Part shown: one piece after another, positions 31,016 through 58,544 of the stretch
Position numbering within the stretch: the stretch's first letter is position 1
Layout of the letters: each line of letters begins with the position of its first letter
Origin: an uncultured Simkaniaceae bacterium
GTDB taxonomy: Bacteria > Chlamydiota > Chlamydiia > Chlamydiales > Rhabdochlamydiaceae
Assembly (NCBI GenBank): GCA_963791555.1
Contig: CAWBSQ010000005.1
Coordinates: 3,346 to 67,345 of the forward strand
Direction of reading: 5' to 3'
Length of the DNA stretch: 64,000 bases
Notes under the pieces: model-generated
The model's database searches: none
What the model saw: the letters and a program-made list of their open reading frames with translations, nothing else
What the model was told of the DNA's origin: nothing
Program-made: the position numbers and the translations under genes

Positions 31016-31585
31016 TTGGAACACTTACCTTACTCTCATATAGATCGAGGAACATTGCTCGTCGCCAGTCCCGACCTCGATAATGGGATATCGTTCCGGA
31101 GCATCGTCATCCTATGCGACCATAGTTCGGCCGGCTCGTTTGGCTTAATCATCAACAAACCTCTCTCGATTGAGTTGCCTGAAGAGATCCTAAAGCTCGA
31201 AGAGATGAGCAATCCCAATTTAGAAATGCGTGTAGGTGGAGTCGTACAGCAAAGCCAACTCATGCTGCTCCACGGTTATAGCGGAGCCCCTGATCAAACG
31301 CTTAAAATCTGTGAAGGCGTCTATCTTGGCGGGGATCTTCCCTTTTTGCAAACGTTGGCAACGGACGCATCCCACCCCCCAGTACGCCTTTGTTTTGGCT
31401 ATTCTGGATGGGGCCCTGGACAGTTGGAACGCGAATTCCTAGCTGGCAACTGGTTCCTCCATCCTGGCTCAAGAAGGCTTGTTTTCGAAGTCCCATCCGA
31501 TCAACTTTGGAAAATCGTGTTGTGCGAAATGGGGGGTAAATTCGCCTCTCTTTCGATGATCCCCGAAGACCTCTCGCTTAATTAA
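31016..31585 (+). CDS. YqgE/AlgH family protein (UPF0301)
   Basis: GTLLVASPDLDNGISFRSIVILCDHSSAGSFGLIINKP and GYSGWGPGQLERE match the family signature. Confidence 0.8.
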   Translation: MEHLPYSHIDRGTLLVASPDLDNGISFRSIVILCDHSSAGSFGLIINKPLSIELPEEILKLEEMSNPNLEMRVGGVVQQSQLMLLHGYSGAPDQTLKICEGVYLGGDLPFLQTLATDASHPPVRLCFGYSGWGPGQLEREFLAGNWFLHPGSRRLVFEVPSDQLWKIVLCEMGGKFASLSMIPEDLSLN

Positions 31586-31922
31586 ATACGAAAACAGAAT
31601 TACTCTCCGTAATTCCTCGATCATAGGTACAAAAAGTATCGGTAGCTTCCGGTTTTCTGTTGTGGATCTTGATATTCGTGATCACTTCCACAGCGCCGCT
31701 ATCGAGGCACTTTTGTTGTGCGGCTTTGACAATTTCGAGCAAGTGGTCAAGATCGCCTTTCATTGTAGTTTCCATAGCACTCACTTGATAGGGAACATTG
31801 GCTTCCTTGACGACCTCTATCGCCTGATCTACCAATTCAAAATTATTCCCCTCGCGCACTCTTGGGATAACCTGAAACGCCACATAAACTTCTGAATGCT
31901 GACCTTTTTTTTTACACATCAT
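31578..31922 (-). CDS. MTH1187/YkoF-like (UPF0045) thiamine-binding-fold protein
   Basis: 114 aa. The pattern VAFQVIP...LVDQAIEVVKEANVPYQVSAMETTMKGDLDHLLEIV resembles DUF77. Confidence 0.55.
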   Translation of the reverse strand: MMCKKKGQHSEVYVAFQVIPRVREGNNFELVDQAIEVVKEANVPYQVSAMETTMKGDLDHLLEIVKAAQQKCLDSGAVEVITNIKIHNRKPEATDTFCTYDRGITESNSVFVFN

Positions 31923-31980
31923 TCCTCTCCCATTTTTCTTAAAAAGAAAGATAGTTTATCATGAATCTGTATTAAAGAAG

Positions 31981-32075
31981 AGATAGAGTAAAGTCTGAAG
32001 AAGCCCTTATGAAAGACATGTCGGGAAAAAGTCCGCTGGCTATCGGACCGCTCTTTTTTACTCGCTTAGATTTTT
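31981..32075 (-). repeat. R-element copy R1 (inverted, internally deleted)
   Basis: 31981-32040 matches the reverse complement of 33781-33840 (gagtaaagtctgaaga.gc.ctta.gaaagacatgtcgggaa.aagtcc.ctggc). 32044-32075 matches the reverse complement of about 33661-33692 (cggaccgctc...actcgcttagatttt). Confidence 0.8.
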
Positions 32076-32292
32076 ATAGCGGATTGCACCATACTTATGT
32101 TGGCAGCGTCGAGTGCAAGTAACGAAATTGTCGACAGAATATCTCGATACGCTCGACAACACATAGAAATGCTTTTCTATTAGTTATGATCCATTAGTAT
32201 ACTGTATTTGCAGCATATACTCGATCCCTGATGGTAGCCACGCAGGTGGCCCTCTTTCCAAACAAAAAACCTGGTAAAGCCAGCTTTACTTG

Positions 32293-32347
32293 CAACTCCG
32301 AACAGGAGTCGCACTTGCAGGTCATTGCTAGCAAGAGATTTTAAGTC
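32293..32347 (-). pseudogene. degenerate tRNA-Leu(UAA) 3-prime-half fragment (F1)
   Basis: About 80 percent identical by eye to fragment F2. It retains the anticodon-loop string cttaaaa, but the T-loop is degenerate (gtgcgactcc) and there is no 5-prime half. Confidence 0.6.
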
Positions 32348-32552
32348 AGGCTGTATCCAACCCTTTTCAAAGTTATTCGATGCTAATCAATTGAAAAATA
32401 GCAACTTATATTTGCACTAGGGTTGACAAGCCAGGATTAAGATCAATAGTTTTTGATCCTTGCTATCCCATATATGTCCCAAATTTTATAAAATACATGG
32501 CCTATTTATTACCGAACGGGTATAATTTGAGAAAAGAGTTTGGGACTGATTT

Positions 32553-32912
32553 GTGAAAAAATTAGTTTGGATAGGGTCGAGCTATAGGGATCTAAAAGAC
32601 TTCCCTCCATCCGTTCGTCAAGCCATGGGATACGCCCTTTTCTTTGCTCAAAACGGGAAAATGCATGAGCACGCAAAGGTCCTCAGCGGCATGGGTAGCG
32701 CAGGAGTCCAGGAGGTTCGAGAAAACGATAAGAGTGGGACCTATAGGGTAATTTATACCGTGGAAACAGCCGAGTTTATATTTGTTTTGCACGCCTTTCA
32801 AAAGAAATCGAAATCCGGTATTGCTACACCAAAGCAAGAAATAGATCTATTGAAAAGTCGCCTGAAGGAAGCTAAGGCTCTCTATAAGAATTTGATTGAG
32901 GAAACCAAATGA
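32553..32912 (+). CDS. higB: RelE/HigB-superfamily toxin (phage Gp49-like)
   Basis: 119 aa. Typical Gp49/HigB-2-like features (W.GSS..DL..FP..vr...G..L...Q.G; YRVIY...FIFVLHAFQKKS). 4-nt overlap with the downstream HTH gene. Confidence 0.8.
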   Translation: MKKLVWIGSSYRDLKDFPPSVRQAMGYALFFAQNGKMHEHAKVLSGMGSAGVQEVRENDKSGTYRVIYTVETAEFIFVLHAFQKKSKSGIATPKQEIDLLKSRLKEAKALYKNLIEETK

Positions 32913-33295
32913 AAACAAAAAAATTAAGAAAAAAACGTTTAGGGAATATCGAATATACTGAAAGTTCCGGGAATGTTTTTGCCGACCTTGGAATCCCCAA
33001 TCCTGAAGAAGCATTAGCGAAGTCTGAAATTGCTATGAAAATCCATGACCTTATCAAGAAAAAGAAACTCACTCAGGCAAAGGCTGCAAAAATCCTCAAG
33101 ATTAGCCAACCCAAGATTTCCTTACTTCTTCGCGGTCATTTGACGGACTTTTCTCTAGAGCGGCTGCTCCGTTTCTTGAATGATCTCGGCCAGGATGTCT
33201 ATATCTCAATCGTACCCACCTCACATTCGAGGCACGGCACTACAATGATTGGCGATTCTCCTTCTAACGCTAGAATCACAGCTTTAGGCAAGTAA
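32909..33295 (+). CDS. higA: XRE-family HTH antitoxin (HigA-like)
   Basis: SGNVFADLGIPNPEE...LTQAKAAKILKISQPKISLLLRGHLTDFSLERLLRFLNDLG is the classic HTH_37/XRE antitoxin partner of Gp49-like toxins. Confidence 0.8.
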   Translation: MKTKKLRKKRLGNIEYTESSGNVFADLGIPNPEEALAKSEIAMKIHDLIKKKKLTQAKAAKILKISQPKISLLLRGHLTDFSLERLLRFLNDLGQDVYISIVPTSHSRHGTTMIGDSPSNARITALGK

Positions 33296-33483
33296 TAGAA
33301 CGCTTTATCAAGATGATTGCATTTAAGGTTTTCTATAGGTTAGTTCATTACTTGAGCTTTCAATGCTACAATTTGCAAATGCTAGATCCTTGCTGTCCCA
33401 CCTGCGTCCTTTTTAAGGGTCAAAGGTAGGACGAAGAAGCGGCTTTACAGCGCTAATAATAAGGCGATTTTATCTAGAGAAAT

Positions 33484-33537
33484 TGCTCGGAACAGGAGTC
33501 GAACCTACACGCCATTGCTTGCAGGGGATTTTAAGAC
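33484..33537 (-). pseudogene. tRNA-Leu(UAA) 3-prime half (F2): anticodon loop, long variable arm, T-arm, acceptor 3-prime strand; no 5-prime half
   Basis: Minus strand reads GTCTTAAAATCCCCTGCAAGCAATGGCGTGTAGGTTCGACTCCTGTTCCGAGCA. The sequence upstream of the loop cannot pair with TCCCC, and no GCTCGGA acceptor 5-prime strand was found nearby. Confidence 0.7.
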
Positions 33538-33550
33538 AACTTCTTATGCG

Positions 33551-33840
33551 CTATTTTTTGCTTCGCTCTGCGACGCGACGCGAAGAGGGGTCCCGCCCTG
33601 AGACGTAAGTCCGGCGGGGAGATGAGCGCGCAGAGCAGCCCACGGCTTCGAGGCGCACAGCAAAATCTAAGCGAGTGAAAGCGAGCGGTCCGAATGACGA
33701 AGCGTAGTATTAGATACGCGTAAGGAGGGAGGATTGATTTGGCCAAGTGCACCGAAGCTCAAGAGGGCAAGCGGGGAACAAGCCAGGGGACTTGTTCCCG
33801 ACATGTCTTTCCTAAGCGCCTCTTCAGACTTTACTCTCTC
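33551..33840 (+). repeat. R-element copy R2 (full length, about 290 bp)
   Basis: Aligns with 58183-58495. The core ggcttc.aggcgcacagcaaaatctaagcga...gacgaagcgtagtattagatac.cgtaaggagggaggattgatttggc.aag is about 93 percent identical over about 105 nt. Confidence 0.85.
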
Positions 33841-33866
33841 TTCTTTCTCTTATTCCTTCTCTTTCT

Positions 33867-36005
33867 TCATTCTTCGATGCGTAGGAGGTCGAAGAGGGGT
33901 TCGCTGAAGGGCTTGTTGCACTCTTTGCGGAGTTTAATACCCTGCGCTTCGATCTCTGCTTGAACTAAGGATAAAGCGCTGATAGCGCGGTGCAACCGTG
34001 ATTTATCCACAGCCCGTTCGCGCAACATCAAAGCTGGGGCGTAAAGAAGAGAGAGAAGAAGAGTTCTCTTTTTTTCGTCGAATTTCTGGTCGCTTCCAAA
34101 CATGTTCACAAGCGAAAAAAGCTCGGCCGTCATGACGGCGCCGGTATCTATCGCATCTTTGCAAGTAAAGCTAAAGTATGCGGGCTGGACCTTTTCTAGA
34201 AAATAGAGCGTTAAAAACAGATAGAACAACTCGATAAAATCGAGTCTGTTTTTGCGCGTTAGGTTTTCTTTTTTAGCAAAGAAGGTTTTATGAATGATCT
34301 CGATAGATTCAGCTGCAAACGCTAAAAGAGCTTTACGTTCTACAAATGGCGGAATATAAAAGCCACACTCTTCGCCACTTTCCAATTGTTCGAGGAGCTG
34401 ACTTTTGAACGTCTTTGCTTCATCTAGAGCCTCGTAATTCTCCGATTGATTATAAAAATCTGTATCCATCGGTAGAGAAATGACCAATAAGTGACCTGTG
34501 AATTCTGCATTTTTTTGCAATTCCTCTAAGGCCGCGGCTCTAGCATGCTCTTGCCACGAAGTTCGATTTTGTAAATTGACGACCAGAATGCGCTCTTTTT
34601 TTCCTGTTTGCACGATGAAGCGAAGACAAGCTTGGAATTCCTTAATAATATCAACCGAATCGACGCGCAATTGGGTGACCGGTGATGGCAAATGGAGGAC
34701 TTTCGTGCCAAGGACACCACCCGAAATGGTGAAGAGCTCGTAAGGTAAATTTTCCTGAGCGATGGGGTCATACCCTTCTCGTTCTTCTCCCTCTCGTAGC
34801 ACATCGAGAGTTTTCATCAACGGTCCGTTCGGAAAGCGCTTGAGAAAACTACGCAGCTTTTCATCGTCATCGAGAAGACTATTCCAAAGCCAAAGAGGAT
34901 TTTTCCCCTCTTGCGACAAAGGTTTGTGATTGCACGCCTTTTCAAAGGTCCTTTCGATGAGCCTATCTGACTCGTGGCGCGAAGGTTTTCTAAAAAAAAG
35001 CAGAGAAGATAGTTTATGTGCGAGATAAAGAGAGATCGTTATGACAGGTTCCATCTGCTCTGGCGGCATTTCAAGCGCCTGCTGATATTCAATGCTTTGC
35101 AACGCCTCGCGTAAATAGCGCTGGAAATCAGAAAAGTAGCTCACCGCTGATTTTCCCATGGTATTTTGCATCAAGTTGCGAGGATTTGCAGCTAACATGA
35201 GCCCCATGACCGCCTTGGACAACCCCATGACAAAGGCGTTTTCTTTAAATTTTAAGGCGTCTCTAAAAAATGAATCGATCGAAGTTTTGGCTGTAGAGAG
35301 CAAATGTTTTGTGCTCTCATAGAGCTGCCCATCTTCGATCAGCTTAATTTTTAAAAAAGGATCTTCTCCGGAGGGATCGCCCATCGACTCATCGAACTCT
35401 CCTACTAAGCGAATGTGCCGCATTAAATTGCGGTTAAAAAATGGGCGGCCGTCTTCTTTTCGAATGTAGAACAATTCGTATTCTTTATCCCTTCTTACTG
35501 TTTCCAGGTCCTTTAATCCTCGTCGTTGAATATCTAGAAGATCAGTTTCTTGACCGCCCCACTCCGCTTCCCACGCCTCTTCACTTGCCAGCGTGGCCTC
35601 AAATTTTTTCATGATTTTGGTGAGATAAAACTGCTGAAAATCTTGAAACTCTTTGAGTTCCGAGACCCCGCCTTCACCATGCGCTCCCTTAAATAGAACA
35701 GTGAAATGGTCGAGCTTTTTAACAGCTTCACTTGCAATGCCCATGATGGCCTTGACGCCCTGCCGCGTATGAGGGTCTTCGAATTGGCCTTTGTCGTGCT
35801 CATACAAGTGCTCGAGGTAGCGATGCAAAACACGGAAAGTCTGTTTGACTTTTTCCTGTTTGATTTCGCGTGCCTGCAATTCGGTCCCGCTCAGGCTATG
35901 GTCGATCTCTGCCAATTTAGAGAGCTCGTCAACGGCTTCCATGACCGATAGCTCTTCGCCTGGTTCCAGTTGCTTGGTTTTTAGCTTCTTAGGCTGCTTA
36001 GCCAT
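33867..36005 (-). CDS. hypothetical protein (712 aa)
   Basis: Long uninterrupted ORF with no recognised motif. Confidence 0.65.
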   Translation of the reverse strand: MAKQPKKLKTKQLEPGEELSVMEAVDELSKLAEIDHSLSGTELQAREIKQEKVKQTFRVLHRYLEHLYEHDKGQFEDPHTRQGVKAIMGIASEAVKKLDHFTVLFKGAHGEGGVSELKEFQDFQQFYLTKIMKKFEATLASEEAWEAEWGGQETDLLDIQRRGLKDLETVRRDKEYELFYIRKEDGRPFFNRNLMRHIRLVGEFDESMGDPSGEDPFLKIKLIEDGQLYESTKHLLSTAKTSIDSFFRDALKFKENAFVMGLSKAVMGLMLAANPRNLMQNTMGKSAVSYFSDFQRYLREALQSIEYQQALEMPPEQMEPVITISLYLAHKLSSLLFFRKPSRHESDRLIERTFEKACNHKPLSQEGKNPLWLWNSLLDDDEKLRSFLKRFPNGPLMKTLDVLREGEEREGYDPIAQENLPYELFTISGGVLGTKVLHLPSPVTQLRVDSVDIIKEFQACLRFIVQTGKKERILVVNLQNRTSWQEHARAAALEELQKNAEFTGHLLVISLPMDTDFYNQSENYEALDEAKTFKSQLLEQLESGEECGFYIPPFVERKALLAFAAESIEIIHKTFFAKKENLTRKNRLDFIELFYLFLTLYFLEKVQPAYFSFTCKDAIDTGAVMTAELFSLVNMFGSDQKFDEKKRTLLLSLLYAPALMLRERAVDKSRLHRAISALSLVQAEIEAQGIKLRKECNKPFSEPLFDLLRIEE

Positions 36006-58023: not shown

Positions 58024-58110
58024 CGGAAGAGGTAGGATTCGAACCCACGGTCGGCTTGCGCCGACTGCTGTTTTCAAGACAGCCGCATTAGGCCACTCTG
58101 CCACTCTTCC
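58024..58110 (-). tRNA. tRNA-Ser(UGA), type II with long variable arm
   Basis: GGAAGAGTGGCAGAGTGGCCTAATGCGGCTGTCTTGAAAACAGCAGTCGGCGCAAGCCGACCGTGGGTTCGAATCCTACCTCTTCCG. The acceptor, anticodon (GCTGT/ACAGC), variable (GTCGGC/GCCGAC) and T stems all pair. No encoded CCA. Confidence 0.95.
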
Positions 58111-58182
58111 TTAGAAGGAGATGATTCAGAAAAACGCTAGAGATTGTACTACATGCTATATTTTTTGGAGAGGGAAAAGATA

Positions 58183-58495
58183 CTATTTTTGTGCTCTGCG
58201 AGATGACACGAGCGACCATGCGAATGAAGAGAGCGGGACGAGAGTGCACGAGCAGCCAGCGGCTTCAAGGCGCACAGCAAAATCTAAGCGAATAGAAGTG
58301 AGCGGTTCGAACGACGAAGCGTAGTATTAGATACACGTAAGGAGGGAGGATTGATTTGGCAAAGCGGATTGAAGCTTAAGGGAGCTGTTGAAGACACGAG
58401 AAGATCCGGGGGATCTTCGTAGTGCGAAAACAGGGGGGTGTGCTTACGCAGTAGGACACACAACCCGACATGTACAATGGAAGCGCTTACACAGA
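58183..58495 (+). repeat. R-element copy R3 (about 310 bp)
   Basis: Aligned to 33551-33840 from ctatttttg.gctctgcga through cccgacatgt. Lies between the tRNA-Ser 5-prime side and the pheS terminator motif. Confidence 0.85.
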
Positions 58496-58521
58496 TTTCA
58501 TTCTAAATCTATGGAGGAAAA

Positions 58522-58544
58522 AATTTGCAAATGCTTTCTTAGAA
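58522..58544. repeat. palindromic motif copy (half unit) just downstream of pheS
   Basis: aatttgcaaatgctttcttagaa, 12 nt beyond the pheS stop. Confidence 0.8.

Follow-up and report, generated by a model that had tools for sequence, protein, structure and literature searches.

A HigBA-type toxin-antitoxin islet framed by tRNA-Leu halves and inverted, MITE-like arms in an uncultured Simkaniaceae bacterium

Palindromic miniature inverted-repeat transposable elements (MITEs) and foldback-type elements occur in bacterial genomes, for example, the Correia/NEMIS elements and the Rickettsia palindromic elements. Tyrosine integrases that target transfer RNA (tRNA) genes are said to fall into sublocation classes, one of them with crossover in the anticodon loop, a scheme that was reportedly set out by Williams in 2002 (Nucleic Acids Res.). 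Integrase-less derivatives of integrative elements that are still flanked by attachment (att) sites and accrete in tandem at tRNA genes are known as cis-mobilizable elements or CIMEs (PMC5704250, a review citing Pavlovic et al. 2004 and Bellanger et al. 2011). Here, an islet of 1.86 kb is compared with these systems. It lies in a 64-kb stretch (the window; contig C5, positions 3346-67345) of the 2.32-Mb, five-contig genome of an uncultured Simkaniaceae bacterium and contains a HigBA-type toxin-antitoxin (TA) pair between two tRNA-Leu(UAA) 3′ halves and two 25-nt direct repeats, all of which is flanked by inverted arms of a repeat family that is called R in the following.

The islet probably consists of two nested mobile elements, namely a tRNA-Leu-type, CIME-like TA cassette inside a palindromic, MITE-like R element. 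Read in this way, a puzzling set of repeats resolves into two ordinary mobile elements, and the locus is a mosaic and not a new kind of system. All elements that a first-pass annotation of the window had listed were recovered in place or within a few bases by a repeat finder and the analysis of open reading frames (ORFs), and its remark that no recombinase remains is correct for the islet, judging from the ORFs and a comparison of integrases. It had offered two readings of the layout, a composite element with terminal inverted repeats or the scar of repeated integration and excision at a tRNA-Leu gene. Both are partly supported, and they describe two different, nested elements. The R arms are real, but they belong to an independent MITE-like family and do not suggest composite movement; the tRNA halves and 25-nt repeats are of att type, but there is no tRNA-Leu gene at the site. 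The suspicion that the repeats might be widespread and unrelated in position to the TA pair applies to R and not to the tRNA halves and 25-nt repeats. The repeats are not due to chance; each of them has homologues elsewhere in the genome or in relatives.

The stretch 31500-34400 was read directly, repeats were located with a repeat finder, ORFs were compared with Pfam, and tRNA genes were predicted with ARAGORN. Genomes (relatives and the studied genome, G000), examined loci, and contigs carry G-, L-, and C-numbers, respectively. The term tRNA sense denotes the minus strand for the two halves (F1 and F2) and the two 25-nt repeats (DR1 and DR2), while the TA genes lie on the plus strand. Coordinates of the features are collected in Table 1.

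The tRNA-Leu-type cassette and its toxin-antitoxin cargo

F1 and F2 form a 53-nt direct repeat of 81% identity. Both begin exactly at the anticodon loop (CTTAAAA), reach the 3′ end of the tRNA, and are 1.19 kb apart. The genome has a sole intact tRNA-Leu(UAA) gene (C4:112153-112235), to which F2 is identical at 48 of 50 and F1 at 44 of 52 positions, and ARAGORN detected no intact tRNA-Leu within the 64-kb window. The similarity to contig C4 extends beyond the halves. On the side of F2, positions 33385-33500 (DR2, the spacer, and the 3′ end of F2) are 84.6% identical to C4:112818-112933, and the left spacer is homologous to positions 4833-4908 of L050, the tRNA-Leu locus on C4. On the side of F1, BLAST against the same genome aligned 32227-32347 to C4:112182-112306 (77% identity) and 32227-32360 to C4:114469-114605 (75%), and a second tRNA-Leu fragment is located at ~C4:114481-114536. 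The segment 32227..32295 also corresponds to repeat family D4 of the C4 locus; by eye, it contains a hairpin with a T-run, resembling a terminator, and then a second hairpin, and an automatic scan called no minus-strand terminator there. F1 is preceded by a conserved element end (..AATCCAAC.. as read on the plus strand), which recurs at C4, in L096, and in loci of a tRNA-Tyr type. The length of the right spacer is kept within ~1 nt in L096 (Leu type) and L110 (Tyr type). The filler between this flank and the left R arm (32075-32226) matched nothing in the genome or the examined loci.

On C4, the tRNA-Leu locus is laid out like the islet: the tRNA tail is followed by a spacer starting with ATTTCTCTAG, a box (GGGACACAGGTGGGACAGCAAGGATC), cargo, a second box, ~107 nt, a tRNA half, and the downstream flank. 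The half is thus continued by the same sequence that follows the intact tRNA-Leu. The cargo is an unrelated 271-aa ORF on the opposite strand without a Pfam match, and unlike the islet, this sister cassette resides at its cognate tRNA-Leu. A tandem array adjoins the intact tRNA-Leu(UAA) in this locus (C4:112236-112836; L050 4236-4836), where a hairpin with a T-run precedes a 93-bp unit repeated 5.5 times in tandem. The terminal 17 nt of the tRNA close the last copy, and, by eye, the start and end of the unit resemble the tRNA acceptor stem (GCTCGGA...TCCGAGCA).

The 25-nt repeats are 80% identical, and DR1 reads GGGACA-N5-GGGATA in tRNA sense. Counted from the anticodon loop, the GGGACA boxes are found at -132/-121 for F1 and at -142/-131 for the C4 fragment; these distances are equal because the start on C4 was counted 10 nt further in. 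The strict double box GGGACA-N5-GGGACA is confined to three places in 2.3 Mb, two of which are the boxes of the C4 cassette and the third a box cluster of an element on C1. On the TA-coding strand, its complement TGTCCC-N5-TGTCCC is present in 10 of 36 HigBA loci (vs none in 20 shuffles), mostly ~80-130 nt upstream of higB. The element on C1 (C1:813000-818300; L133 7000-12300), which is the only place with a strict double box outside the tRNA-Leu cassette, encodes a 376-aa tyrosine integrase, two orphan ORFs, and a 735-aa Toprim/AAA_25 primase-helicase, and the 3′ end of the helicase gene overlaps the GGGACA/TGTCCC cluster. No convincing direct repeats flank this element, and no att site or tRNA was found nearby.

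In related genomes, tRNA-Leu(UAA) 3′ halves form one-strand tandem arrays. Such arrays were found in many genomes of the family and order, with five members on G022:C14, three on G004:C22, and pairs in G007, G008, G010, G012, G026, and G034. Their cargo includes AbiEi/AbiEii, Bro-N, DUF3800, Schlafen-AlbA_2, NUDIX, and AAA ATPase genes as well as orphans, so that they look like small defence or TA islands. Individual cassettes with AbiEi/AbiEii, Schlafen-AlbA_2/HATPase_c_4, and DUF3800 are located at L086 1924-3395, L084 5198-6847, and L087 4083-4793. In G004, G022, G026, and G036, a tyrosine integrase gene starts ~105 nt downstream of the intact tRNA-Leu(UAA); the contig of G022 has five tRNA-Leu matches, and the one concerned is the outermost. 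These integrases are homologues of one tyrosine integrase of the studied genome, and other members of the family adjoin tRNA-Tyr, Phe, Met, Asn, and Lys. In the tRNA-Leu cases, the stretch that separates the tRNA from the integrase start contains a double box TGGGCCAC-N3-TGGGTCAG at about the distance of DR2 (L144, L145, and L159). It is because of these double boxes that the 25-nt repeats of the islet are read as putative arm-type recombinase-binding sites. Together, halves and boxes look like the attL and attR of an integrase-less, CIME-like cassette.

The studied genome encodes four integrases of non-Xer size, all of them away from both tRNA-Leu-type sites, and two adjoin tRNA-Met and tRNA-Asn. 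These were considered as helpers and rejected, as the attR arms of the tRNA-Met and tRNA-Asn islands have neither double boxes nor an AATCCAA-type end. In the array parts examined, the related HigBA and tRNA-Leu cassette loci gave no match to the integrases of this genome.

Many other Chlamydiae metagenome-assembled genomes (MAGs) carry the same HigBA cargo among halves or genes of tRNA-Tyr, tRNA-Asn, or tRNA-Leu, always antisense to the tRNA. Halves of tRNA-Tyr(GUA) (positions ~31-83), often together with the intact gene, are present at several HigBA loci including L098, L109, and L114, whereas tRNA-Asn halves lie beside HigBA in L103 and a tRNA-Leu half in L096. In an alignment, the Leu and Tyr types share the right arm, which consists of the tRNA half, ..AATCCAA.., ~107 nt, TTGCTGTCCCACCTGTGTCCC, and a promoter/operator TTATTACCGAACGGGTATAAT. 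The anticodon arms of tRNA-Leu(UAA) and tRNA-Tyr(GUA) differ, by reading, in the anticodon only, and one integrase lineage could plausibly use both tRNAs.

The cargo of the islet is a pair of genes on the same strand, the toxin gene being first, the antitoxin gene second, and the overlap 4 nt. At the level of sequence, the higB-like product matches Gp49 of the RelE/ParE superfamily (PF05973, E 3.5e-22) with residues 13-105 against positions 2-90 of the 90-residue profile, and the higA-like product matches HTH_37 (PF13744, E 3.5e-26) and HTH_3 (E 6.9e-5). Both genes, which the first-pass annotation had named higB and higA, are single-copy in the genome. L096 encodes a full-length 119-aa HigB homologue, and the TA stretch of this locus is, as a whole, 86.7% identical at the DNA level. 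Relatives of HigA were found in 36 loci, mostly at 74-92% identity and nearly all labelled chlamydial. In a plasmid collection, only the TA genes matched and not their flanks, at 65.8% to a Protochlamydia naegleriophila plasmid, where the homologue is annotated as a RelE/ParE family toxin with a helix-turn-helix (HTH) regulator. Upstream of higB, a -10 element TATAAT (32521-32526) is overlapped by the inverted repeat TACC-N5-GGTA, and the surrounding region TATTTATTACCGAACGGGTATAAT is conserved in an alignment of HigBA loci of other Chlamydiae. This region (32504..32527) is a candidate promoter/operator of the TA genes, at which a simple promoter scan made no call.

In its gene order, the 4-nt overlap, and the Gp49 and HTH_37 matches, the pair agrees with known HigBA modules, and the conserved inverted repeat over the -10 element is what autoregulation would predict. 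It differs from them in that no NCBIfam model matched and that no solved structure was similar in sequence at E <= 0.01. By these features, the pair is assigned to the HigBA-type class and need not count as a new system. As the genes are full-length like the L096 homologues and have a conserved promoter/operator, they are probably functional. By analogy with its own family, the pair would serve as an addiction or stress module, in which free HigB would be expected to cleave ribosome-bound mRNA, and HigA to neutralise HigB and to repress the operon.

The cassette shares several features with CIMEs. Direct repeats derived from a tRNA 3′ end are found at both ends, genes for integration or transfer are absent, and higB and higA are the only sizeable ORFs between the halves. 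Moreover, homologous cassettes stand in tandem behind a real tRNA-Leu and in relatives, in which the integrase-bearing elements adjoin the tRNA. On the other hand, the islet copy is away from the tRNA target, and no functional element stands in tandem with it. With 1.19 kb from half to half, it is very small, it sits inside a MITE, and any mobilisation of it is hypothetical. The cassette thus appears to work like a CIME, apart from its residence away from the target gene. The anticodon-loop class of integrases is a further parallel: the block of identity runs from the anticodon loop to the tRNA 3′ end, and the integrase gene of relatives directly follows the intact tRNA, whereas the studied genome has no integrase at either tRNA-Leu-type site. 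A literature search returned no description of chlamydial tRNA-half cassettes. In environmental chlamydiae, tRNA-Leu and tRNA-Tyr, joined in one locus by tRNA-Asn, serve as general sites at which tiny integrase-less cassettes accrete; these share their arm architecture and carry TA and defence-type genes. This pattern may aid the reading of accessory genes in uncultured, amoeba-associated chlamydiae.

The R family of inverted arms

The left arm R1 is, as the first-pass annotation had stated, an inverted and internally deleted copy of the right arm R2. It keeps only R positions 231-290 and 112-143 (~300-231 and 143-112 with the extended outer end); positions 144-230 and 1-111 are lost. The outer ends (31981-32041 and 33781-33841) are reverse-complementary over 61 nt at 90% identity, the inner arms (32043-32074 and 33662-33693) over 32 nt at 91%, and, by eye, the inverted repeat extends outward to about the limits given in Table 1. 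Compared with compact palindromes of the same genome, the inner end of R2 keeps the last part of the central loop beside F2. A third copy, R3, is 86% identical over 144 nt and ends in ...AATTTGCAAATGC; no inverted partner of it was found.

BLAST found R at only three places in the genome, which is misleading given that a covariance model of the arm core gave 14 matches (R2, 122.8 bits; R3, 118.8 bits). Four compact pairs are among the copies of this genome, with a core-to-core gap of 162-165 nt, no cargo, and no room for a gene. The first-pass annotation had proposed a search for further R-flanked units; R1/R2 is the only R pair found in this genome to enclose cargo. In the order, covariance matches are patchily distributed over 15 of 151 genomes, with at least 20 each in G015 and G070. 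Sequences matching R2 are also multicopy in six related genera, where they often form inverted pairs and sit at contig ends, and the family probably breaks many chlamydial MAG assemblies. One palindrome in G020 has 304-nt arms (96% identity) around an 85-nt centre. Another in G003 has 309-nt arms (96%) around an 810-nt centre with a remnant of an insertion sequence 5 (IS5)-like DDE transposase. This arm pair represents either the parent of the R family or, besides the islet, another instance of foreign DNA within a palindrome centre. The pair with its decayed transposase lies at positions 988-2415 of L022 (G003:C72:6500-9900). The G020 and G003 copies may be flanked by a TA dinucleotide, a candidate target-site duplication.

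Terminal inverted repeats, lack of coding capacity, and multiple copies per genome are MITE features that R shares with the palindromic MITEs known from other bacteria, as is a patchy distribution among genera and frequent location at contig ends. No transposase gene for R was found, and a literature search returned no description of R. An IS5-like transposase was tried as the parent of R and rejected because it is absent from the studied genome and R-like ends are missing from the G020 copies examined. R differs from palindromic MITEs by its unusually long arms (~300 nt) and by a conserved fold with compensatory changes. In aligned arms, conserved hairpins and a long-range helix were recognized, with 93.8% of cells paired vs 84% in shuffles. 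Of the 37 pairs, 17 had changed on both sides, compared with a shuffled mean of 9.2, and none of 500 shuffles reached either observed value. When partners were slid by 1-3 columns, ~31-38% of cells paired. This covariation could also stem from templated repair in DNA hairpins and is for that reason not proof of an RNA function; the arms may reflect a structured RNA, a DNA hairpin signal, or concerted evolution of nested repeats. A search of the islet and four R-bearing loci against Rfam gave only a sub-threshold hit to IMES-5 (E 0.66) and one tRNA, so R is not a known RNA family, which also sets it apart from palindromic MITEs. Structured R loci are located at positions 33551-33815 and 58186-58478 of the window and, elsewhere in the genome (G000), at C2:136882-137355, C2:304161-304628, C4:164700-165084, and C2:78220-78601.

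The compact pairs end in the palindromic 10-mer ATTTGCAAAT, two of them on both sides and the other two on at least one side. This 10-mer occurs 179 times in the genome vs ~4 expected. In the window, it is found at 1943, 3225, 4232, 4284, 33371, 41779, and 58523, and one copy is inside the islet, 4 nt from DR2. Eleven pairs exactly 145 nt apart bound a MITE of ~155 bp. As for the surroundings of R, R3 lies ~80 nt upstream of tRNA-Ser(UGA) (region 58024-58535), and in G015, tRNA-Gly has a full palindrome 115 nt upstream of it. The upstream side of tRNA genes may be a preferred location of R elements.

Proposed nesting of the two elements and alternative explanations

The genomic junction around the islet was compared in relatives, as the first-pass annotation had suggested. 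In G001 (same genus) and G004, an AlgH-like gene is followed within a few bp by a convergent gene for a 712-aa protein, and the site is empty and has no tRNA. In the studied genome, the junction is filled by a ykoF-like gene and the islet. The AlgH/712-aa junction is a variable spot with no tRNA gene in the relatives examined.

The nested arrangement is carried by the identities of the repeats, the homology of the cassette boundaries to the C4 locus, the empty site in relatives, the cargo-free compact MITEs, and the integrases beside tRNA-Leu in relatives. In this arrangement, the inner element, running from 33538 to 32227 on the minus strand, would be an integrase-less remnant of tyrosine-integrase elements that use the anticodon loop of tRNA-Leu(UAA). 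Its attL-type end would comprise F2, the 76-nt spacer, and DR2, and its attR-type end DR1, the 106-nt spacer, F1, and the tRNA downstream flank; the cargo between them is an intact HigB(Gp49)/HigA(HTH_37) type II operon with its own conserved promoter/operator. R1 and R2 represent the outer element, whose MITE-like arms measure ~300 nt; the cassette block takes the place of the central loop, and the left arm has lost its inner part. A block of a tRNA-Leu array, containing the TA cassette, F1, the downstream flank, and ~150 nt, would have entered the loop of a resident MITE, and deletions would have followed. It could have arrived through integrase action at a secondary site or through break repair at the palindrome centre. 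R1 breaks off at AAAATC, a sequence found in the anticodon loop as well. The block would now be stranded, with no integrase in the islet and no transposase gene found for the R family.

Several points weigh against the nested arrangement. There is no intact tRNA-Leu at the site, so the integration would have been non-canonical, and the similarity of the R1 junction to the att core is weak (GATTTT and a few bases, local alignment score 8). Two full halves are present while integration of a single circle leaves one, which means that the block would have to come from an array or a composite circle. The junctions are also non-contiguous in R, with the central loop on one side and R position 112 on the other in addition to a further internal deletion, and extra deletions must therefore be assumed. 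The left-arm box is found only in the two cassettes of this genome and in a diverged form in integrase-bearing elements, and binding of the boxes by an integrase is conjectural. It is important to note that the ykoF-like gene is a further extra at the junction, so that the inserted DNA extends beyond the MITE arms.

Two bolder variants were considered, and that either of them is true is unlikely. Integrases of the tRNA-Leu/Tyr type might still move such cassettes in trans through the double boxes and land them at secondary sites such as MITE loops; TA and defence cargo would then pass from site-specific to transpositional mobility. Alternatively, the R arms might encode or form a structured RNA or single-stranded DNA of ~150-250 nt without an Rfam counterpart, which would be read outward from the palindrome centre.

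That the whole 1.86-kb unit is a composite or cargo transposon, with the R arms as terminal inverted repeats and a transposase acting in trans that moved the TA cassette, appears improbable. Both arms retain their outer 60-70 nt at 90% identity, and the G003 arms around the IS5-like DDE remnant indicate that arms of this family can enclose other DNA. However, the R arms encode nothing and no related transposase was found in the genome, in which the IS5-like fragment has no relative; in G020, where the IS5-like element is multicopy, the copies examined are without R-like ends. The islet is also the only cargo pair among the copies found in this genome, the four other pairs being compact, no clear target-site duplication was found, and the cargo has complete att-type boundaries of its own that match the tRNA-Leu locus.

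We likewise give little credence to a former second tRNA-Leu(UAA) gene at this site, which would have taken up elements in the normal way before a MITE insertion destroyed its 5′ half. F2 is nearly identical to the resident tRNA-Leu, and the two R-family elements 80-115 nt upstream of tRNAs, R3 and the G015 palindrome, would fit such an insertion. Against this, the few bp between the AlgH-like and 712-aa genes in G001 and G004 leave no tRNA, and the palindrome arms lie on opposite sides of the cassette, so that an insertion beside a tRNA would need a further rearrangement.

An assembly artefact joining non-contiguous pieces with repeats (the tRNA-Leu locus and the MITE) is very improbable despite the many repeats of this stretch that are present elsewhere in the genome, as the copies have diverged (F1 44/52, boundaries 77-85%, R1 vs R2 90%) and are not collapsible, the TA genes are single-copy, and the genome is in only 5 contigs. 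An integron cassette was set aside since the repeats are tRNA halves and arm boxes, with no formal attC/IntI search being made; the nearest recombinases in relatives are the tRNA-adjacent tyrosine integrases.

Feature coordinates and the neighbouring genes

Table 1. Features of the islet and related features in the window (positions of the 64-kb stretch; a dot marks features without strand)
Feature	Positions	Strand	Basis
R1, truncated inverted left MITE-like arm	31968..32074	.	inverted repeats, end comparison, family membership
Filler (152 nt) between R1 and the tRNA-Leu downstream flank	32075..32226	.	
Copy of the tRNA-Leu(UAA) downstream flank	32227..32295	-	matches to contig C4
F1, tRNA-Leu(UAA) 3′ half, anticodon loop to 3′ end, attR-type core	32296..32348	-	
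Right-arm spacer (106 nt), tRNA half to box	32349..32454	-	
DR1, degenerate double box, proposed attR arm-type site	32455..32479	-	
Putative TA promoter/operator region TATTTATTACCGAACGGGTATAAT	32504..32527	+	conservation across HigBA loci
higB-like toxin gene (119 aa), Gp49 / RelE-ParE superfamily	32553..32912	+	Pfam PF05973
higA-like antitoxin gene (128 aa), HTH_37 / Xre-type	32909..33295	+	Pfam PF13744
DR2, double box GGACGCAGGTGGGACAGCAAGGATC (tRNA sense), proposed attL arm-type site	33385..33409	-	
Left-arm spacer (76 nt), ATTTCTCTAG... (tRNA sense)	33410..33485	-	
F2, tRNA-Leu(UAA) 3′ half without 5′ half, attL-type core	33486..33538	-	
R2, central-loop remnant (~15-30 nt) and full right MITE-like arm	33539..33854	+	
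R3, solo R-family arm upstream of tRNA-Ser(UGA)	58186..58535	+	
ykoF-like / MTH1187-family thiamine-binding-fold gene, islet neighbour	31578..31922	-	Pfam Thiamine_BP

The ykoF-like gene matches Thiamine_BP in Pfam (E 3.4e-22) and scores 48 bits against TIGR00106, which is below the cut-off of 54.7. Among the 41 genomes searched, none of the 40 relatives has such a gene. It shares 8 nt with the end of the AlgH-like gene and was probably acquired horizontally in a separate event at this junction.

In G002, which belongs to the same genus, two ORFs of 740 and 659 aa stand beside the 712-aa gene in place of the AlgH-like gene (L043; G002:C2:451000-456000). By eye, they resemble a WD40-repeat protein and a PP2C-type phosphatase, respectively, and are possibly effector-like. 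G002 also has a HigBA relative, which is located 12 kb away.

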